Assembly: GCA_016839515.1 (NCBI GenBank)
Contig: JAEOUE010000267.1
Span: 1-17,279 of the forward strand
Length of the DNA stretch: 17,279 nt
Direction: 5' to 3'
From: Candidatus Hodarchaeum mangrovi
GTDB taxonomy: Archaea > Asgardarchaeota > Heimdallarchaeia > Hodarchaeales > Hodarchaeaceae
The notes below the pieces were generated by a model, which saw nothing but the letters and a program-made list of their open reading frames with translations, searched no databases and was not told the DNA's origin. The position numbers were made by a program, and so were the translations under genes. Of this stretch, positions 6,106 through 16,115 are shown piece after piece. The stretch's first letter is position 1, and every line of letters starts with the position of its first letter.

Positions 6106-6112
6106 AGGTGAT
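6106..6112 (+). promoter_or_regulatory. Shine-Dalgarno AGGTGAT for the corrinoid protein
   Basis: The ORF-track GTG at 6108 lies inside this motif; an in-frame TTG follows at 6117. Confidence 0.65.
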
Positions 6113-6116
6113 TAAA

Positions 6117-6773
6117 TTGGCAATCGAGCAGCTTTACAAAACATTAAAAAATTCAATAGAAGAATTTAAACCAGAAGAGGCCAAGCAGGTAACTAAAAAA
6201 CTTTTGGAAGCCCAAATTGACCCCCTAAAAGTGTTAGACGATGTTTTAAACCCAACAATGGAGGAAATAGGAGAAAAATTCGATAGGATGGATATCTTTC
6301 TACCTGAACTCATGGGTGCCGCAGAAGCAATGCGAGCTGCCACCTCTGTCTTAACGGAACATATAAAGAAGAGTACTATAACCCCCACTGAAGTGAAGGG
6401 GAAAGTTGTACTAGGAACAGTATCTGGAGATATACATGAAATCGGGAAAAATATAGTTAAGATTATGCTAGAAGTTTCAGGTTTCGAAGTCCTAGATTTA
6501 GGAAAAGATGTTCCTTCACTCAAATTTATTGAAAAAGCTGAAGAAGTAAATGCAGATGTAATAGCTCTATCAGCACTCATGACAACTACAATGCATTCTC
6601 AAAGAGAAGTGATTGAACTATTAGAAGCCTTAGGAAAACGAAATAAATATCTGGTTATAATTGGGGGGAATCCAACCACTGATAACTGGCGGAAAGAGAT
6701 AGGAGCTGATGGATGGGCTGAAACTGCAGTTGGAGCAGCAAAGCTTGTTGTAAAAATGATTCAGGAAAGGTGA
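6117..6773 (+). CDS. mtmC: Methyltransferase cognate corrinoid protein (MtmC/MttC/MtbC family)
   Basis: Cap motif 'MEEIGEKFDRMDIFLPELMGAAEAM', B12-binding DxHxxG 'GDIHEIGKNIV', 'DLGKDVP', 'SALMTTT', 'IIGG', 'IGADGWAE'; directly upstream of the MtmB homologue. Start moved to TTG 6117 on SD position (ORF track: 6108). Confidence 0.92.
   Translation: MAIEQLYKTLKNSIEEFKPEEAKQVTKKLLEAQIDPLKVLDDVLNPTMEEIGEKFDRMDIFLPELMGAAEAMRAATSVLTEHIKKSTITPTEVKGKVVLGTVSGDIHEIGKNIVKIMLEVSGFEVLDLGKDVPSLKFIEKAEEVNADVIALSALMTTTMHSQREVIELLEALGKRNKYLVIIGGNPTTDNWRKEIGADGWAETAVGAAKLVVKMIQER
6768..6773 (+). promoter_or_regulatory. Shine-Dalgarno AGGTGA overlapping the corrinoid-gene TGA stop (translational coupling)
   Basis: AGGTGA-gacaa-ATG(6779). 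Confidence 0.7.
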
Positions 6774-6778
6774 GACAA

Positions 6779-8164
6779 ATGGGAACCCCTCCTTGGCGAA
6801 TCAATGAAGTATTGGACAGAGCACAAAATGGACCTATCTGTTTAGAAAAGGATTTTGATTTTAAGTTTTTAGTCCCTGAACTCCAAAGAGTTATTAAAGA
6901 ATATGATATTTGTTTTGATCCGTTAACTCCTATCCCTTCTGATGATACACTTGCAGATAATCTTTGGAAAGCTGCTTTGGACTTTTATCTTACTGTAGGA
7001 ACTCTTTGTACTGATACTTATCGTAGAATTAAATTTACAGAGAATGAAATAAAAGAAGCATTAGGAAATTTCCCTGGAAAGTATATCTTGGGTTTTGGAC
7101 GCGACGCAAGGGAAATCACAAGTAGAAAAGTCGAAGATACACGAAGGCCTTTTTGCCTTTTTTCACCAGATATTACATGTGACGAAGATTTATTTATTCC
7201 CATGAGTATGGCATATTTACAGGAACCCTTAGCTGATGGGGTTTGTGCTCCAATTCTTGATGAGATTGAGGGTATGCCAATACGTTCTGGTTCACCAACC
7301 GAAGTTAAAGGATCTGTCGCCCATGCAATGATGTTTCGAGAAGCAGCAAGACGAGTTGGTCGTCCAGGGATTTTTCTTAAAAGTGTTGGAACTGCAGAAT
7401 CTGCTGCTGCTCAAATTGCGGCCAGTAATCCTGAATGGGGAGAAAGATTAACTGATGGACGATTTGTAGCTAGTATTTCAGAACTAAAGGTGAATAATTC
7501 TCTATTGAATAAAATGGTACATTTTCATACTTATGGTTGTTTTGTAGGAGCATTAATGGGTCCGATTCTAGGAGGATATTCTGGGGGACCTGAAGGAACG
7601 GCGATTGTGGGACTTGCTTATCATTTACAAGGATTACTCGTAAATCAGGCCCACTTTTTAAATTATTTTCCATTTCATTTGAAACATACATGTAATACCA
7701 TGAGAGAGCTTCTTTGGGTTATTTCTATGACTTATCAATCTTTAGCTCGGAATAGTAACCTAATTTCCCTTTCAAATGGATTTACTGCAGCAGGACCGTG
7801 TACCCCTATGGTATTAAGAGAGGCTGCAGCTCATGCACTTGTAAGTGTTGTCTCTGGTTCAAATCTTTGGGAAATAGCTGTAGCAAAGAACAGACATAAG
7901 AATTATGCCACACCCATGGAAGCTAGAATGGCCTGTGAAGTTGGTTGCGGTGCTGCTAAAGAAAGAATTACAAGAAACGATGCAAATGAAATAACTTTAA
8001 CACTTTTAAAATCTTATGAAAAAGATATAGAAACAGCTCCACTTGGAAAAAGTTTCCGTGAATGTTATGATATACGAAAGGTTAAACCTTCTCCAGATTA
8101 TACCGAGCTCTTCAATACAATTCGCAACGAACTTATAGATTTAGGTGTTCCATTCATATATTAA
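6779..8164 (+). CDS. mtmB: Monomethylamine:corrinoid methyltransferase (MtmB) family protein, pyrrolysine-free
   Basis: MtmB-like segments throughout: 'PIPSDDTLADNLWKA', 'CTDTYRRIKFTENEI', 'VGRPG', 'ELKV', 'PILGGYSGGPEGT', 'AGPCT', 'TPMEARM', 'APLGKSFRECYD...ELIDLGVPF'; 461 aa from ATG 6779; no in-frame TAG. The symbol denotes the family; the substrate is uncertain. Confidence 0.92.
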   Translation: MGTPPWRINEVLDRAQNGPICLEKDFDFKFLVPELQRVIKEYDICFDPLTPIPSDDTLADNLWKAALDFYLTVGTLCTDTYRRIKFTENEIKEALGNFPGKYILGFGRDAREITSRKVEDTRRPFCLFSPDITCDEDLFIPMSMAYLQEPLADGVCAPILDEIEGMPIRSGSPTEVKGSVAHAMMFREAARRVGRPGIFLKSVGTAESAAAQIAASNPEWGERLTDGRFVASISELKVNNSLLNKMVHFHTYGCFVGALMGPILGGYSGGPEGTAIVGLAYHLQGLLVNQAHFLNYFPFHLKHTCNTMRELLWVISMTYQSLARNSNLISLSNGFTAAGPCTPMVLREAAAHALVSVVSGSNLWEIAVAKNRHKNYATPMEARMACEVGCGAAKERITRNDANEITLTLLKSYEKDIETAPLGKSFRECYDIRKVKPSPDYTELFNTIRNELIDLGVPFIY

Positions 8165-8199
8165 TTTACCTCACTTCCCACATTTACTTGCTCTGGCCG

Positions 8200-8868
8200 T
8201 TATTTCATTCGATAAGAACATTGAACTGTTTTACAGTATATACATCGATTTTCCCATCGGGATTGTCTAATATTCTCAGCTATATTTATTGCAAATGAAA
8301 TTGACTTGATTGGAACCATTAAATAGCCACTAGTCAGGTGAACTTCAATTTTATGAGCAGGAAGTAGTTTAAAAATTAATTCCTGATCTCTTAAATCCCA
8401 ATTACAATAACCGGGACTATAACGTCTCGAACACTCAAATGGAGATCTTTTTGTTAATTTATGTATCTCAGAATCTACTATATCAGCGAGATATTCAACC
8501 CCCGCAGAACCAATTGCATCCAATATGACTCCATCTAAATATTTGCCTAAAACCATCAAATTATTAACTTCTTCAGGTAGAGCTTTACCTAAAGTTACAA
8601 TTACTAATGCTACTTTTTTAACTTCTTCGAAACATTCGCGAGCGGGGAGGTCTGATCGATTAAAAATACTATATATGGATTTTGGTTGAAATAAAAATTG
8701 AGCTTTTTGTTTTAATTTATCCAACCGACTGAAAAATTCCTTCTTACTAGCTTTCCCCGCTAAAAGAGGGGATCCATTCCTTTTAGTAAGATAATTAAGT
8801 ATATCTTGATCTTGTATATTGCATAATTGATAGATTTTTTGATAATACATCGTTTGGACATGTTCCAT
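8200..8868 (-). CDS. Stand-alone vitamin B12-dependent methionine synthase activation (SAM-binding reactivation) domain protein
   Basis: 'VTLGKAL', 'ILDAIGSAGVEYLAD', 'RYSPGYCNWDLRDQ', 'HLTSGYLMVPIKSIS', C-terminal 'CIYCKTVQCSYR'. Start is 8868 or ATG 8850. Confidence 0.88.
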   Translation of the reverse strand: MEHVQTMYYQKIYQLCNIQDQDILNYLTKRNGSPLLAGKASKKEFFSRLDKLKQKAQFLFQPKSIYSIFNRSDLPARECFEEVKKVALVIVTLGKALPEEVNNLMVLGKYLDGVILDAIGSAGVEYLADIVDSEIHKLTKRSPFECSRRYSPGYCNWDLRDQELIFKLLPAHKIEVHLTSGYLMVPIKSISFAINIAENIRQSRWENRCIYCKTVQCSYRMK

Positions 8869-8946
8869 CTAGACTGATTAAACTTGCATGATCGAAAGAC
8901 AATGTAAAAAACAGTGAGGAAATTCCTAACTAGTCTAGTATAAAGC

Positions 8947-8958
8947 AATTTATAAATT
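8947..8958. promoter_or_regulatory. Palindromic TATA-like element AATTTATAAATT in the divergent intergenic region
   Basis: Perfect 12-bp palindrome reading TTTATAAA on both strands, between divergent starts at 8868 and 9025. Confidence 0.35.
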
Positions 8959-9024
8959 TTAGTGAAATATTACCCTAAGAGAGTTTTTAATTTATTTAAA
9001 AAAATTTATAGAAGAGTAAATTAG

Positions 9025-10302
9025 ATGTTAGAAGACCTTCTAGAATCATTTATTCCACTTTTCCTTTTGATTTGTGTTAATCTAGCAGTTATATTCCGCA
9101 GGATTGGAAAACTGAAAGTTCCTGCATGGACTGCCTTTATGATTGCTGCGCTAATCTTAATTCTGCTTCAACCAGGCGCTTATGAAAGGGCTGTCATAGT
9201 TATCGGAAAACAGGTTCATGTTTTAATCTTCCTTTTTGGAATGTTTGTCTTGGTCACTGCTTTAGATATTAGCGGATCCTTGGAGGAACGGGGAAAATCA
9301 CTCCTCTTAAAAGGAAAATCACCTAAAGGATTACTACTTTTAATCCATTTCGGTTTAGGTCTCGCTGCAAGCTTACTTGTGAACGACACAGTGGCAATTA
9401 TTGGTCCCATCTTATTAATTGCCTTTACAAAGCAGGTACGTAAATACCCAAAGCCGTATATCCTAGCAATCTGTTATGCATTAACTTTTGGGTCAGCATT
9501 ATTACCAACAGGGAATCCTCAAAATTATATTCTAGCTATTGCAGGAGGTATTAGCTTTTTAGAATTTGGGATTTGGGCTCTTTTCCCTACCTTTTTTTCT
9601 CTCTTTGGAAGTTATGTCCTCTTAAAGTATCTGCTTAAATCTGAGTTCAACGAAATTAAATTTCCTATTATCCCAGCCATTGCAGAAAAACATGAATTAG
9701 AATCTTTACAAAGACCTTCAGAAGGTTTTTTTGTGGTTCTAATAATTGGTTTAATTCTCTCCTCCTTTATTACTCAAATTTCAATTACTCTAATAATTCT
9801 TCTTATTACAGGGATTTTCTTATTTATTGTAAATGAAAGAGACCAAATACTAGAGAAACTCAATTGGGAGGTCATCCTCTTTTTCATGGGTATGTTTGTA
9901 GTCTTAGATGCTGTTGTGTCTTCCAATCTCTTTGTAAATACTATTTCCCCTTTTCTCAATCAATTAGAATTCAATTTTACAAGCTTTGTAATCTTTATAC
10001 TAATTATATTTCTTCTTTGTCAGGTATTATCAAATGTTCCAGTAGCCATTCTCATTACAGGAATACTACCTGGAACTCCGTTAGATCACCCCATATTTTG
10101 GATGACCGCAGCTTTAACTACTACATTTGCGGGAGCAACTACTGTTATAGGAGCAGCTAGCAATATTATTGTCATTGATACAGCAGCTGAACGTGGTGTT
10201 GAAATTACCTGGTGGGACTTCACGAAGTTTGGTATCCCAATCTCAATTCTGAGTCTAATTCCAATTCTTATGATTGGATTATTATTTTTTATTTTGGGTT
10301 AA
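9025..10302 (+). CDS. ArsB/NhaD (IT superfamily; SLC13/CitMHS/YbiR-like) anion permease
   Basis: About 11-12 TM segments; 'FLFGMFV', 'LLVNDTVA', 'FGSALLPTGNPQN', 'NWEVILFFMGMFVV', 'LSNVP', 'FAGATTVIGAASNIIV', 'ITWWDFTKFG'. Confidence 0.9.
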   Translation: MLEDLLESFIPLFLLICVNLAVIFRRIGKLKVPAWTAFMIAALILILLQPGAYERAVIVIGKQVHVLIFLFGMFVLVTALDISGSLEERGKSLLLKGKSPKGLLLLIHFGLGLAASLLVNDTVAIIGPILLIAFTKQVRKYPKPYILAICYALTFGSALLPTGNPQNYILAIAGGISFLEFGIWALFPTFFSLFGSYVLLKYLLKSEFNEIKFPIIPAIAEKHELESLQRPSEGFFVVLIIGLILSSFITQISITLIILLITGIFLFIVNERDQILEKLNWEVILFFMGMFVVLDAVVSSNLFVNTISPFLNQLEFNFTSFVIFILIIFLLCQVLSNVPVAILITGILPGTPLDHPIFWMTAALTTTFAGATTVIGAASNIIVIDTAAERGVEITWWDFTKFGIPISILSLIPILMIGLLFFILG

Positions 10303-11801
10303 TCTAATCTTGAACTAGGAAAAATGAGGGCATTTTCAATAAATAATGCTAAATCCTTTCTTAACTTTACCAGAGATGGAGGGTGGAGATACATCATATG
10401 ACCTGCTTCATAATATGCCATTATGATATTTTTTCGCAATCCCGAATCCAATCCAAGATGATTAAACGTATATTTGGTTGCCAAAAAAGGTGTTGCAAGA
10501 TCGTAATATCCATTTCCTACAAAGACCTTTAAAAATGGGTTCTTACTCATCGCATCCCTTAGAGTTTCTGCTACATTCAAATACTGATTATGATAATCTT
10601 CATATTTCCAAGTTTTATAGATTGGACTAAGTATTTCATAAGGCAAATCATTTTGATAATTTAACTCTGTAAATACGTAATGATTGAAGGTTGCAGTGTA
10701 TGGACCTTGTATCGCTGAATAACTTGGATCATATTCAGGTTCTGCATTACTGTCATCTCTTTCAATACCTAAATATCTAGTATCTAATCTACCTACTGTT
10801 CGATGTTTCTTCCGCAATAGTTCTTTACAAAACTTATAGATATTGATTCTAAGATTTACTCCTGCTATATATTCACGGGATAAACCCGTTAAGTCTGCTA
10901 ATCTTTCAAGTATTTGTACTCGTTCTTCTTTGGGTATAGTATCTCCTTTCATTAATGCTAATGTATATTCTTTTAAAGTAAATGAAGTAACTTCCTCTAT
11001 TGTTTTTTGTAAGTCCTTCTGTCTTTCAGGAGATAATAATTTATGGTACCAAGCAGTTGCAGTATAAGTTGGTAAAAATAGGATGTATGGAAGATCATTC
11101 CCTGGATTGAAACGAGCTGTTTGGAAGTTTAAAATAGAAGAAATAAGCATAATCCCATTTAAAAACATACCTAGATCATCTTGTAGGACCCCTGATAGAC
11201 CAGCTGCGCGTGTAGTTCCATAGCTCTCTCCAATTAAAAATTTTGGTGAAGCCCAGCGTTTTGAACGAGAAGTAAATAGTCGAATGAACTCTGCAACAGA
11301 TTTCAGGTCTTTCTTATATTCATGAAATTGTGTGTTCTTTTCTCCTGGTACAGCCCGTGAAAAACCAGTACTGACTGGATCAATGAATACCAAGTCTGTT
11401 AAATCTAATAGCGAATAATTATTATCTACAAGTCTATAAGGAGGATTGACTGGTTTTTCATTTGCTTCAGCAATAACTCTTCTAGGTCCTAATACTCCTA
11501 AATGCAACCATACAGATGAGGATCCAGGACCTCCATTGAAAGAAAAGGTAATTGGTCGTTTCGAAATATCAGAAATACCATCTCTTATATAGGCAATATA
11601 AAAGATAGATGCTTTGGGTTTTGGTTCCTTTCCTTCTTCCTCTTCCTTAATAAGAAGAGTACCAACTTGAGCGGTGTAATCGATTTCCTGTCCATCGATT
11701 ATTACTCTATGAGTAGTTGTAACCAATTCCTCTTTAGGAATTTTTGGTTTTTCTATATCCTCTTTTTTCTCTTTGGAATTGCTTTTTTCATCGTCAGTCA
11801 T
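10299..11801 (-). CDS. Peptidase S10 serine carboxypeptidase
   Basis: 'FNGGPGSSS', 'FIDPVSTGFS', catalytic Ser 'GESYG', Asp 'GYYDLATP', His 'YEAGHMMY'; no signal peptide; stop overlaps the permease stop (TTAA 10299-10302). Confidence 0.95.
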   Translation of the reverse strand: MTDDEKSNSKEKKEDIEKPKIPKEELVTTTHRVIIDGQEIDYTAQVGTLLIKEEEEGKEPKPKASIFYIAYIRDGISDISKRPITFSFNGGPGSSSVWLHLGVLGPRRVIAEANEKPVNPPYRLVDNNYSLLDLTDLVFIDPVSTGFSRAVPGEKNTQFHEYKKDLKSVAEFIRLFTSRSKRWASPKFLIGESYGTTRAAGLSGVLQDDLGMFLNGIMLISSILNFQTARFNPGNDLPYILFLPTYTATAWYHKLLSPERQKDLQKTIEEVTSFTLKEYTLALMKGDTIPKEERVQILERLADLTGLSREYIAGVNLRINIYKFCKELLRKKHRTVGRLDTRYLGIERDDSNAEPEYDPSYSAIQGPYTATFNHYVFTELNYQNDLPYEILSPIYKTWKYEDYHNQYLNVAETLRDAMSKNPFLKVFVGNGYYDLATPFLATKYTFNHLGLDSGLRKNIIMAYYEAGHMMYLHPPSLVKLRKDLALFIENALIFPSSRLD

Positions 11802-15046: not shown

Positions 15047-15532
15047 CTAGAAATATTTATGGAGAGTATTTTTTTCATGATTCAATAGCCATTGCTTCCT
15101 CCAAATTCCACCACGGTAGCCTGTGAGCTTGCCATTACTCCCAATCACCCGATGGCAAGGGATGATTATTGGAAGTTTGTTCATAGCATTAGCATTACCG
15201 ACAGCACGATTAGCCTTAGGTAAGTCAATACTTTGAGCTATCTGAGCATAGGATCGTACCTTTCCGTGTTTAATCTTACTTACTTCTTTCCAAACTTTTT
15301 TTTGAAATTCTGTACCATTAAGCTCGAATGGTACAGTAAATTCTTTTCTAGCTCCTTGAAAATATTCATTCAGCTGTGTTATACACTCAGCTATGATTGG
15401 TAACTCAGATTTTGCATTAAGATCTATCTCCTCATCATCAATATATCTTAGGCTGATTAGTACATTATTTTTAACCCTAATCTCAATGATACCAATTGGC
15501 GAATTATAATAAACCTTTTCTATCTTATTCAT
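15047..15532 (-). CDS. ogt: Methylated-DNA--[protein]-cysteine S-methyltransferase
   Basis: 'SPIG', 'QLNEYFQG', 'GTEFQKKVW', 'RAVGNA', active site 'IIPCHRVIG', 'LTGYRGG...KQWLL'. Confidence 0.96.
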   Translation of the reverse strand: MNKIEKVYYNSPIGIIEIRVKNNVLISLRYIDDEEIDLNAKSELPIIAECITQLNEYFQGARKEFTVPFELNGTEFQKKVWKEVSKIKHGKVRSYAQIAQSIDLPKANRAVGNANAMNKLPIIIPCHRVIGSNGKLTGYRGGIWRKQWLLNHEKNTLHKYF

Positions 15533-16115
15533 AAGAAAATACTCCTGGATTTACCCCAAATTCTTTAATAAACGCTTGTCTAAATCCACTACTCGATTTG
15601 AATCCAGATTGTAATCCTGCAGCTGAAGTATTCATTCCTGATTTTATCAGAGTCATTGCATAGTTTAAACGCACTTTTCTATGGTATTGAACTGGAGTTT
15701 CACGGTATATTTTTCTAAATTGCTCCCTAATTGTTGTTATTTCGACTCCTGTTATATTTTCAAATTCCTTTCGGGTCACACGCCTATTTTTTATTTTATT
15801 CAATTTGTTAACAAGATTTTTTAGCCAAGGAGGAGTTGTATCGGGAAAATCAGCAGCTTTACATCTCAAACATCCCCGATAACCTGCTTTTTCAGCCAAT
15901 TCTTTTGTTTCAAATAATTCAATATTGGTCGATAGAGGACGTTTAGCTTTACAAGATGGGAGACAATAAATGTGAGTCGTTTTTACTCCAAAATAAAATA
16001 GCCCATTAAAATCAGGATCACAATTATAAATAGCCTTTAATAGTTCTTGTTTATTCATTAACGAAAAATCATTCTTTTTCCTTACCTTGTCAACAGAAGA
16101 ATGAGCTTTTGGCAT
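15525..16115 (-). CDS. adaA: Ada-family methylphosphotriester-DNA methyltransferase / AraC-type regulator (AdaA-like)
   Basis: Ada Zn-binding domain 'FYFGVKTTHIYCLPSC...AEKAGYRGCLRC' followed by AraC-type HTH 'FRKIYRETP...RLNYA...SGFKSSSGFRQAFIKEFGVNP'; overlaps the ogt start by 8 nt. Alternative start ATG 16058. Confidence 0.9.
   Translation of the reverse strand: MPKAHSSVDKVRKKNDFSLMNKQELLKAIYNCDPDFNGLFYFGVKTTHIYCLPSCKAKRPLSTNIELFETKELAEKAGYRGCLRCKAADFPDTTPPWLKNLVNKLNKIKNRRVTRKEFENITGVEITTIREQFRKIYRETPVQYHRKVRLNYAMTLIKSGMNTSAAGLQSGFKSSSGFRQAFIKEFGVNPGVFSYE

Follow-up and report, generated by a model that had tools for sequence, protein, structure and literature searches.

What does a member of the MtmB family do when the residue standing at the pyrrolysine (Pyl) position is an ordinary lysine? 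The question is raised by a 17,279-nucleotide stretch of DNA (hereafter the window) comprising positions 1 to 17,279 of contig JAEOUE010000267.1 from assembly GCA_016839515.1 of the Asgard archaeon Candidatus Hodarchaeum mangrovi. At 6779-8164 it encodes a homologue of the Methanosarcina barkeri methyltransferase MtmB with a lysine, Lys201, where MtmB has Pyl202. A preliminary description of this locus suggested that the lysine could be an ancestral-like or reverted state, a site at which a Schiff base or a Pyl-like group is attached, or a carboxylate-binding residue. The analysis presented below leads us to an explanation which we hold to be probable and with which, of these suggestions, a carboxylate-binding or other polar ligand-binding role may be compatible: the protein is a Pyl-independent methyl-X:corrinoid methyltransferase (MT1) that works with the corrinoid protein encoded immediately upstream; Lys201 is a non-covalent polar residue of its pocket; and the substrate is something other than monomethylamine.

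Results

A full-length MtmB-family protein with lysine at the pyrrolysine column

The open frame of the gene spans 6770-8164 and contains no in-frame stop; the ATG at 6779 yields a protein of 461 residues terminated by TAA at 8162-8164, and the close homologues, being 461 amino acids long too, support this choice of start. Its sole Pfam match is PF05369 (326.5 bits against a cut-off of 25; E 3.4e-97), with residues 8-456 covering positions 3-449 of the 450-position profile; it does not match PF06253, the model of the MttB superfamily. It is also the single PF05369 match in the whole genome, which has a G+C content of 33% and a completeness of 91%. Among the chains of the PDB, phmmer matched M. 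barkeri MtmB1 alone (1tv2_A, E 1.5e-69; 1l2q_A, E 8.8e-69), aligning residues 11-459 of the query with 12-458 of the MtmB1 chain. For the fold we used an AlphaFold2 model built from a 122-row alignment (predicted local distance difference test score, pLDDT, 96.7; predicted template-modelling score, pTM, 0.95) in place of an alignment-free, single-sequence model that proved unusable (pLDDT 34.4). Foldseek superimposes the alignment-based model on 1tv2, 1l2q and 1nth with template-modelling (TM) scores of 0.94-0.95 and a root-mean-square deviation of 1.4-1.5 A over 454 columns. Hence, the protein is a full-length member of the MtmB family with, as modelled, the TIM-barrel fold of MtmB.

Residues 194-205 read GRPGIFLKSVGT, from G194 (GGT at 7358) to T205, which ends at 7393, and they align without a gap with the segment grpgmgvXgpet of 1l2q, K201 falling opposite the X that denotes Pyl202; the GRPG motif that precedes it is conserved throughout the MtmB family. 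In the model K201 is the last residue of the strand 199-201, in agreement with the anchoring of Pyl202 on a beta-strand of the MtmB TIM barrel described in PMC9842639. Nor is the lysine codon an assembly slip, as the same letters are found in contigs of independent public runs, namely a 698-base piece from run X4 (7301-7998), which is identical to the window, and a 1077-base piece from run X12 (6752-7828), whose 11 differences are all listed within 7471-7798. Translation, the ungapped alignment, the Pfam model and the superposition on the MtmB structures thus bear out what had been claimed initially, that is, a plain lysine (AAA) at the Pyl site of a gene with no in-frame TAG, and neither run has a TAG at that codon. 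The enzyme cannot use Pyl chemistry. A metatranscriptome run (X20) furnished one 221-base contig identical to 7961-8181; we make no claim of expression from it, a single piece of this length being too little and DNA carry-over being possible.

The lysine-type clade lies far from the pyrrolysine-type enzymes

Pyl-type genes for comparison were gathered by a PF05369 search of a methanogen-type phylum, where 68 of the 72 matches carry exactly one in-frame TAG, the other four being three short fragments and one full-length gene with Phe at the column. In the Asgard phylum the family is present in 51 of 400 genomes, and TAG occurs in none of their 86 PF05369 matches. A FastTree phylogeny of 182 rows, scored for the residue at the column, places the query in a K clade (support 99) within a 21-row K/Q clade (98); this in turn falls within a 28-row clade with V, A, C and T types (100), itself part of a 55-row clade (100) that also contains Asgard paralogues with Asn at the column ("N-type"). 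The 13 Pyl-type rows are found elsewhere in the tree, as part of a 20-row clade (100) in which the rows without Pyl show L, I, F or G. A 48-row IQ-TREE phylogeny agrees with this picture. The grouping of the K clade with the Pyl clade, corresponding to the reverted state put forward in the preliminary description, was submitted to the approximately unbiased (AU) test after the first tree had been seen, and was rejected with a log-likelihood difference of 445 (p 2e-41). This rejects a recent reversion from TAG to AAG; in these trees, which have no root, ancestry of the lysine finds no support.

In one genome (L113; G672:C28), two TAG-containing MtmB genes are accompanied by a paralogue that is full-length and Pyl-free and has Phe at the column, GRPGMAVFGPES; it scores 535 bits to PF05369 and, in the tree, belongs with the non-Pyl rows nearest to the Pyl clade.

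A column that varies across the family and is constant within one clade

Among the best 120 of 576 matches to the protein, column 201 is occupied by K in 58, Q in 46, V and A in 6 each, H in 2, and C and T in one each. Identity to the query is 65-100% for the K rows, and all those that are named come from Asgard metagenome-assembled genomes (MAGs); it is 59-74% for the Q rows, among which are [Eubacterium] cellulosolvens, Bathyarchaeia and one MAG with the label Promethearchaeota. The named best matches belong to MAGs labelled Hodarchaeota/Hodarchaeales, Heimdall-, Odin-, Thor- and Promethearchaeota, across which this Lys/Gln subfamily is conserved at 75-95% identity; it was also found in 15 of 21 other genomes of the same genus, often as 2-3 paralogues. 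All 14 Lys-type genes from Asgard genomes have the lysine, encoded by AAA in 14 and AAG in 5 of the 19 distinct DNA contexts of the motif seen in the window and related loci. As the residue is invariant while both synonymous codons occur, the lysine is maintained by purifying selection within one clade, and it is not a feature of the whole family. An exhaustive HMMER scan of 1.84 billion representatives recovered 990 clusters (50% identity) of the family at E <= 0.001; in the best 150 of these, hydrophobic residues predominate at the column (L 24, V 17, I 14, G 13, gap 11, K 1), these counts being approximate as the alignment is gappy there for distant rows. Because the column simply varies across the family, "lysine instead of pyrrolysine" is less remarkable than it first appears.

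A 460-residue protein, P0298, which reads ERPGMAIKGPET, has K at the Pyl column and falls inside the Pyl-type clade. The K may simply be how a Pyl was written in the record, or the lysine may be genuine, in which case P0298 would be a closer instance of lysine in place of Pyl than the window gene; known from the protein alone, it was not used.

A probably remodelled pocket

The columns of Gly204, Phe229 and Leu259 are near-invariant Glu in the 13 Pyl-type rows, as against G, F and L in all ten K rows. The glutamates concerned are Glu205, Glu229 and Glu259 of M. barkeri MtmB, which Hao et al. 2002 reportedly placed in its active site. Further replacements from the Pyl-type to the query state are E by H182, D by Y296, G by F297, I by F299, E by N362, S by W364, H by R228 and M by K245. 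From these columns and the model we infer that the cavity has probably changed from an acidic to an aromatic and basic one. The K and Q clades share the pocket changes, column 201 being the main difference between them. Foldseek matches of the model to Schiff-base aldolases have TM scores of 0.23-0.36, which amount to generic TIM-barrel likeness only.

The corrinoid partner and the gene neighbourhood

The stop codon (TGA, 6771-6773) of the gene directly upstream lies 5 nucleotides before ATG 6779. Besides its two B12-binding domains (Table 1), the encoded protein scores 209.1 bits with TIGR02370, "methyltransferase cognate corrinoid protein", just below the cut-off of 215.3, and its DxHxxG motif is DIHEIG (6429-6446). 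The order of corrinoid gene and Lys-type MtmB gene is repeated in 6 of the 14 Lys-type genes examined, and a corrinoid-protein gene is present in 35 of 45 loci with Gln-type or other close relatives.

On the other side, convergent with the MtmB homologue, lies a gene (8200-8868) for a stand-alone protein with a Cys-rich C-terminus, similar to the S-adenosylmethionine (SAM)-binding activation domain of B12-dependent methionine synthase. Its nearest Atlas clusters (score 0.96-0.97) are 216-229-residue "methionine synthase activation domain" proteins of Bacillota, and BLAST found no match to it (E <= 1e-5) in the 20 related Asgard regions examined; it is at most a possible accessory gene of the methyl-transfer system. 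Beyond it lies a CitMHS-type permease, and none of the remaining neighbours in the window recurs beside related genes in the same 20 regions.

Elsewhere the surroundings are more varied. In four genomes of the same genus (L036, L038, L044, L046) there is a second Lys-type paralogue, 77-80% identical, that lacks a neighbouring corrinoid gene; ada and ogt come directly after it on its own strand, and an N-type paralogue is convergent to them. The linkage may hint at methylating agents; it is weak evidence, since the four genomes are close kin. Two loci of the Asgard family f28 (L040, L054) have a Lys-type gene beside genes for a thiamine pyrophosphate (TPP)-dependent enzyme, an enolase-superfamily MR_MLE protein, a cupin, a class-V aminotransferase and a DtxR-like repressor. 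Since betaine epimerases are members of the enolase superfamily, the MR_MLE neighbour is a possible substrate clue, seen in two related loci only. We did not adopt the gene neighbourhood as a guide to the substrate: it presents no consistent pathway, the MR_MLE, TPP and aminotransferase neighbours being confined to two loci of one family. The core Gln-type loci (metagenome contigs L114-L129 and L155) have a conserved cluster in common, which runs from an AsnC-type regulator, an MFS transporter, an AIR-synthase-like protein, the corrinoid protein and the MtmB homologue (Gln) to a 121-residue protein, a Zn-ribbon protein, a DUF2207-like 560-residue protein and a radical-SAM/SPASM enzyme.

Pyrrolysine genes and the rest of the pathway

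A search of this 91% complete genome for the Pyl machinery, which the preliminary description had named as a check with pylTSBCD, returned no match to PylS and nothing above cut-off for PylD (21.8 against 150 bits), PylB (26.3 against 348) or PylC (41.3 against 248). Aragorn detects just 19 tRNAs in the genome, so the absence of a tRNA-Pyl says nothing. TAG serves as the stop codon of 255 of the 1385 open reading frames of 300 amino acids or more. The genome further encodes one RACo/RamA-type activase (contig C54), four URO-D-family proteins and one pterin-binding protein, and has 12 B12-binding-domain matches. Another of its contigs (C122:1928-4632) has a gene for a Pyl-free MttB homologue, free of in-frame stops, and upstream of it one for a separate corrinoid protein; with this module accompanying that of the MtmB homologue, the organism has at least two Pyl-free methylamine-type MT1 modules. 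In a genome of another Asgard family (L048; G319, 7667-10740), a corrinoid protein, an N-type MtmB homologue and an MtrH-like methyltransferase are encoded on one strand in what looks like a complete operon of MT1, corrinoid protein and second methyltransferase. As this gene order includes MtrH, such modules could feed a pterin-linked methyltransferase.

Table 1. Features of the window bearing on the MtmB homologue and its surroundings
Feature	Position	Strand	Basis
Putative Pyl-free MtmB-family methyltransferase, Lys-type clade, 461 aa	6779..8164	+	PF05369, PDB phmmer, AlphaFold2 model
GRPGIFLKSVGT segment, counterpart of GRPGMGV-Pyl-GPET in M. barkeri MtmB	7358..7393	+	ungapped phmmer alignment
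Lys201 codon AAA at the Pyl202-equivalent column	7379..7381	+	translation and alignment to 1l2q
Gly204; column Glu in 12/13 Pyl-type sequences (M. barkeri Glu205)	7388..7390	+	alignment
Phe229; column Glu in 13/13 Pyl-type sequences (M. barkeri Glu229)	7463..7465	+	alignment
Leu259; column Glu in 13/13 Pyl-type sequences (M. barkeri Glu259)	7553..7555	+	alignment
Cognate corrinoid protein, 221 aa, B12-binding_2 and B12-binding domains	6108..6773	+	PF02310 5.4e-27, PF02607 1.1e-18
Possible accessory gene; stand-alone 222-aa protein resembling B12-dependent methionine synthase activation domain	8200..8868	-	PF02965 22.9 bits, below cut-off 25
ogt (O6-methylguanine methyltransferase) and ada (Ada Zn-binding domain and AraC HTH) genes, 7 kb from the MtmB homologue	15047-15532 and 15525-16115	-	domain content

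Discussion

A proposed mechanism and what weighs on it

The analysis shows the family, the fold, the position of the lysine and its clade distribution, the linked corrinoid protein and the lack of Pyl genes; the catalytic competence of the protein, the role of Lys201 and the class of its substrate are what we infer. Briefly, we advance the following mechanism. The genes at 6108-6773 and 6779-8164 would constitute a two-part, pyrrolysine-independent methyl-transfer module, in which the MtmB-fold TIM-barrel protein, acting as the MT1, would hold a methylated substrate in its central cavity and offer its methyl group to Co(I) in the corrinoid of the upstream-encoded protein. The resulting methyl-Co(III) would then be unloaded by a second methyltransferase encoded elsewhere, with a RamA/RACo-type activase re-reducing the corrinoid cofactor. 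Lys201, in the place of Pyl202, would play an ordinary polar, non-covalent part in a remodelled pocket, in which the acidic side chains found in Pyl-type MtmB would have been lost and aromatic and basic ones acquired; given these losses and gains, the substrate is probably not monomethylamine activated via an imine adduct. As for what the substrate might be, we tentatively suggest, by analogy, a betaine- or choline-type "onium" compound that carries an acidic or polar tail and acts as methyl donor, a guess that may well prove wrong. The aromatic residues could then hold the cation and Lys201 and Arg228 the tail, in the manner of Tyr97/Phe356 and Arg312/His348 of MtgB.

Several points weigh against this proposal. 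The pocket residues were picked from alignment columns and the ends of model strands, and this limits how far an aromatic cage and a basic anchor can be read into them. Eight of the 14 Lys-type genes have no adjacent corrinoid gene, no recurrent transporter or pathway was seen around Lys-type genes in the neighbourhoods examined, and no MtrH homologue was found in the 91% complete genome. At residue 209 (7403-7405) the query has Ala, reading ESAAA against ESDAA or xSDAA in nearly all close K-, Q-, V- and A-type homologues, an alanine otherwise seen only in P0035, P0095 and three more distant rows. Finally, the Pyl-free MtqB, discussed below, is described as having a low activity with monomethylamine, 11 nmol/min/mg (PMC13044021), and some turnover of monomethylamine without Pyl may thus occur.

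Alternative explanations

The main rival, which we judge unlikely, is that the methyl donor is not an amine at all, being instead a methyl halide, a methylated thiol or a methoxy compound, and that a largely hydrophobic pocket merely guides it to Co(I), as proposed for CdmB. It is consistent with the replacement of the Pyl-type acidic residues mostly by hydrophobic or aromatic ones, and with the ada and ogt genes that follow the second Lys-type paralogue in the four genomes of the genus and lie 7 kb away in the window. Moreover, a Pyl-free protein of the MtmB superfamily is reported to show the largest increase in dichloromethane-grown "Ca. Formimonas warabiya" (PMC9768040), and CdmB itself is described as a haloalkane scaffold (PMC13222342). 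However, the ada/ogt linkage occurs only among close kin, so that its instances are not independent, and the paralogue concerned lacks a corrinoid gene; CdmB belongs to the UroD family and not to the MtmB family; and the conserved Lys201, Arg228, Lys245 and His182 would be unexpected in a purely hydrophobic channel. The view that the protein is a true monomethylamine methyltransferase working without Pyl is one to which we give very little credence: database annotation names the protein so, and MtqB has its trace activity (PMC13044021), but the acidic pocket around Pyl and the methylammonium site is gone, and Pyl is held to be required for methylamine activation in the accounts of PMC9842639 and PMC13080624.

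The remaining alternatives turn on the lysine itself. Lysine is the backbone of Pyl, the residue sits exactly at the Pyl202 position, and it is invariant in its clade despite synonymous codon change, all of which could suggest that it replaces Pyl chemically, either by being modified into a Pyl-like electrophile or by forming a Schiff-base or methyl-lysine intermediate with the substrate. We nevertheless regard this as improbable in the extreme, and its broader form, in which Lys201 is a catalytic nucleophile, a methyl relay or the site of a new, PylBCD-free modification activating methylammonium or another methyl donor, as highly improbable. Near relatives, 59-74% identical, have Gln instead while their pocket is otherwise the same, which makes chemical activity or modification of the lysine unlikely; furthermore, the next relatives have V, A, C, T or H at the column, PylB, PylC and PylD were not found in the 91% complete genome, the Glu columns around Pyl have become G, F and L, and the resemblance to aldolases is of the generic kind noted above. 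The attachment site for a Schiff base or Pyl-like group envisaged in the preliminary description founders on these same observations. The idea that the lysine is a relic, either of a Pyl-type gene whose TAG mutated to AAG or AAA after the Heimdall-type loss of Pyl decoding or of a pre-Pyl ancestral state, covers the ancestral-like or reverted state of the preliminary description and draws on AAG and CAG each being one step from TAG and on the proposal of an Asgard ancestor with Pyl that was lost on the Heimdallarchaeia branch (PMC9723677). This too strikes us as very doubtful, as identity between the Lys clade and Pyl-type MtmB is about 31%, the Lys clade branches within non-Pyl clades of Q, V, A, C, T and N types, a grouping of the Lys and Pyl clades fails the AU test, and the nearest non-Pyl relatives of the Pyl clade in the unrooted tree carry L, I, F or G.

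Relationship to known systems

Compared with M. barkeri MtmB1 and MtmC (PDB 1NTH, 1L2Q, 1TV2), the window pair shows the same Pfam family, length, predicted TIM-barrel fold, GRPG before the key column and adjacent corrinoid protein. It differs in that the protein is about 31% identical to MtmB1, has Lys (AAA) rather than TAG-encoded Pyl, and has, beyond the G, F and L of the Glu columns, about ten further acidic columns that are neutral, aromatic or basic; its 91% complete genome has no detected Pyl genes, and its host is a non-methanogenic Asgard archaeon. The preliminary description knew of no characterised Pyl-free member of the MtmB family, which is outdated: MtqB of Methanococcoides methylutens Q3c (ACT9XH_RS04775) is reported to be a Pyl-free MtmB homologue that demethylates tetramethylammonium and choline (PMC13044021, Front Microbiol 2026) and is presented there as the first function shown for a non-Pyl MtmB. 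According to the same paper, non-Pyl MtmBs had been recognised years earlier and are present in Asgard archaea, its 1,061-sequence tree listing the rest as of "unknown function", and MtqB has a conserved Met and Cys and aromatic residues near the ligand. Like the window pair, MtqB and MtqC combine a Pyl-free MtmB homologue with a corrinoid protein, and they indicate that the family can use quaternary amines without Pyl. However, the MtqB clade lies near the Pyl-type MtmBs as described in PMC13044021, whereas the window protein belongs to the separate 55-row clade (support 100), apart from the 20-row clade of the Pyl-type rows and their closest non-Pyl relatives; with MtqB compared by its description only, this would argue against membership of the MtqB clade. 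A search of the text of the literature turned up no account of the Lys-type clade or of what occupies its Pyl column. The protein belongs to a known, recently opened and little-studied group of enzymes.

MtgB and the other Pyl-free enzymes of the MttB superfamily offer an analogy of mechanism and not of membership: as described in PMC13080624, a Pyl-free relative binds a larger methylammonium compound non-covalently and passes the methyl group to a corrinoid protein, with the cation in MtgB bound by aromatic residues and the carboxylate by Arg and His. They differ from the window protein in belonging to PF06253 and in superimposing on it with Foldseek TM scores of only 0.47-0.54. CdmB (PMC13222342) was considered as a further Pyl-free relative of MtmB and was ruled out as a UroD-family protein on the description given there; the latest version of PMC10418091 does not mention MtmB. 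Closest at hand are the Gln-type sisters ([Eubacterium] cellulosolvens P0060, 71% identical; Bathyarchaeia), which are 59-74% identical to the window protein, have a corrinoid gene immediately upstream and share with it the pocket columns G204, R228, F229, L259, Y296 and W364. They differ in having Gln at 201 and in their core loci, which include the MFS, AIR-synthase-like, Zn-ribbon, DUF2207-like and radical-SAM/SPASM genes.

Significance

Among the 990 clusters of the family, MtqB is the sole member for which we found an assigned function in the literature, as given in PMC13044021. Against this backdrop, the K, Q, V and A variation at the Pyl-equivalent column would constitute a natural series for how one fold selects its substrates. 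Were Lys201 to be chemically active after all, it would represent an independent solution to the chemistry for which methanogens recruited the 22nd amino acid, and a so-far unrecognised methylotrophy in the archaea closest to eukaryotes. Knowledge of the substrate of the Lys/Gln enzymes would reveal the methylated compounds that enter one-carbon metabolism in these sediment archaea, to which eukaryotes have their closest known kinship.

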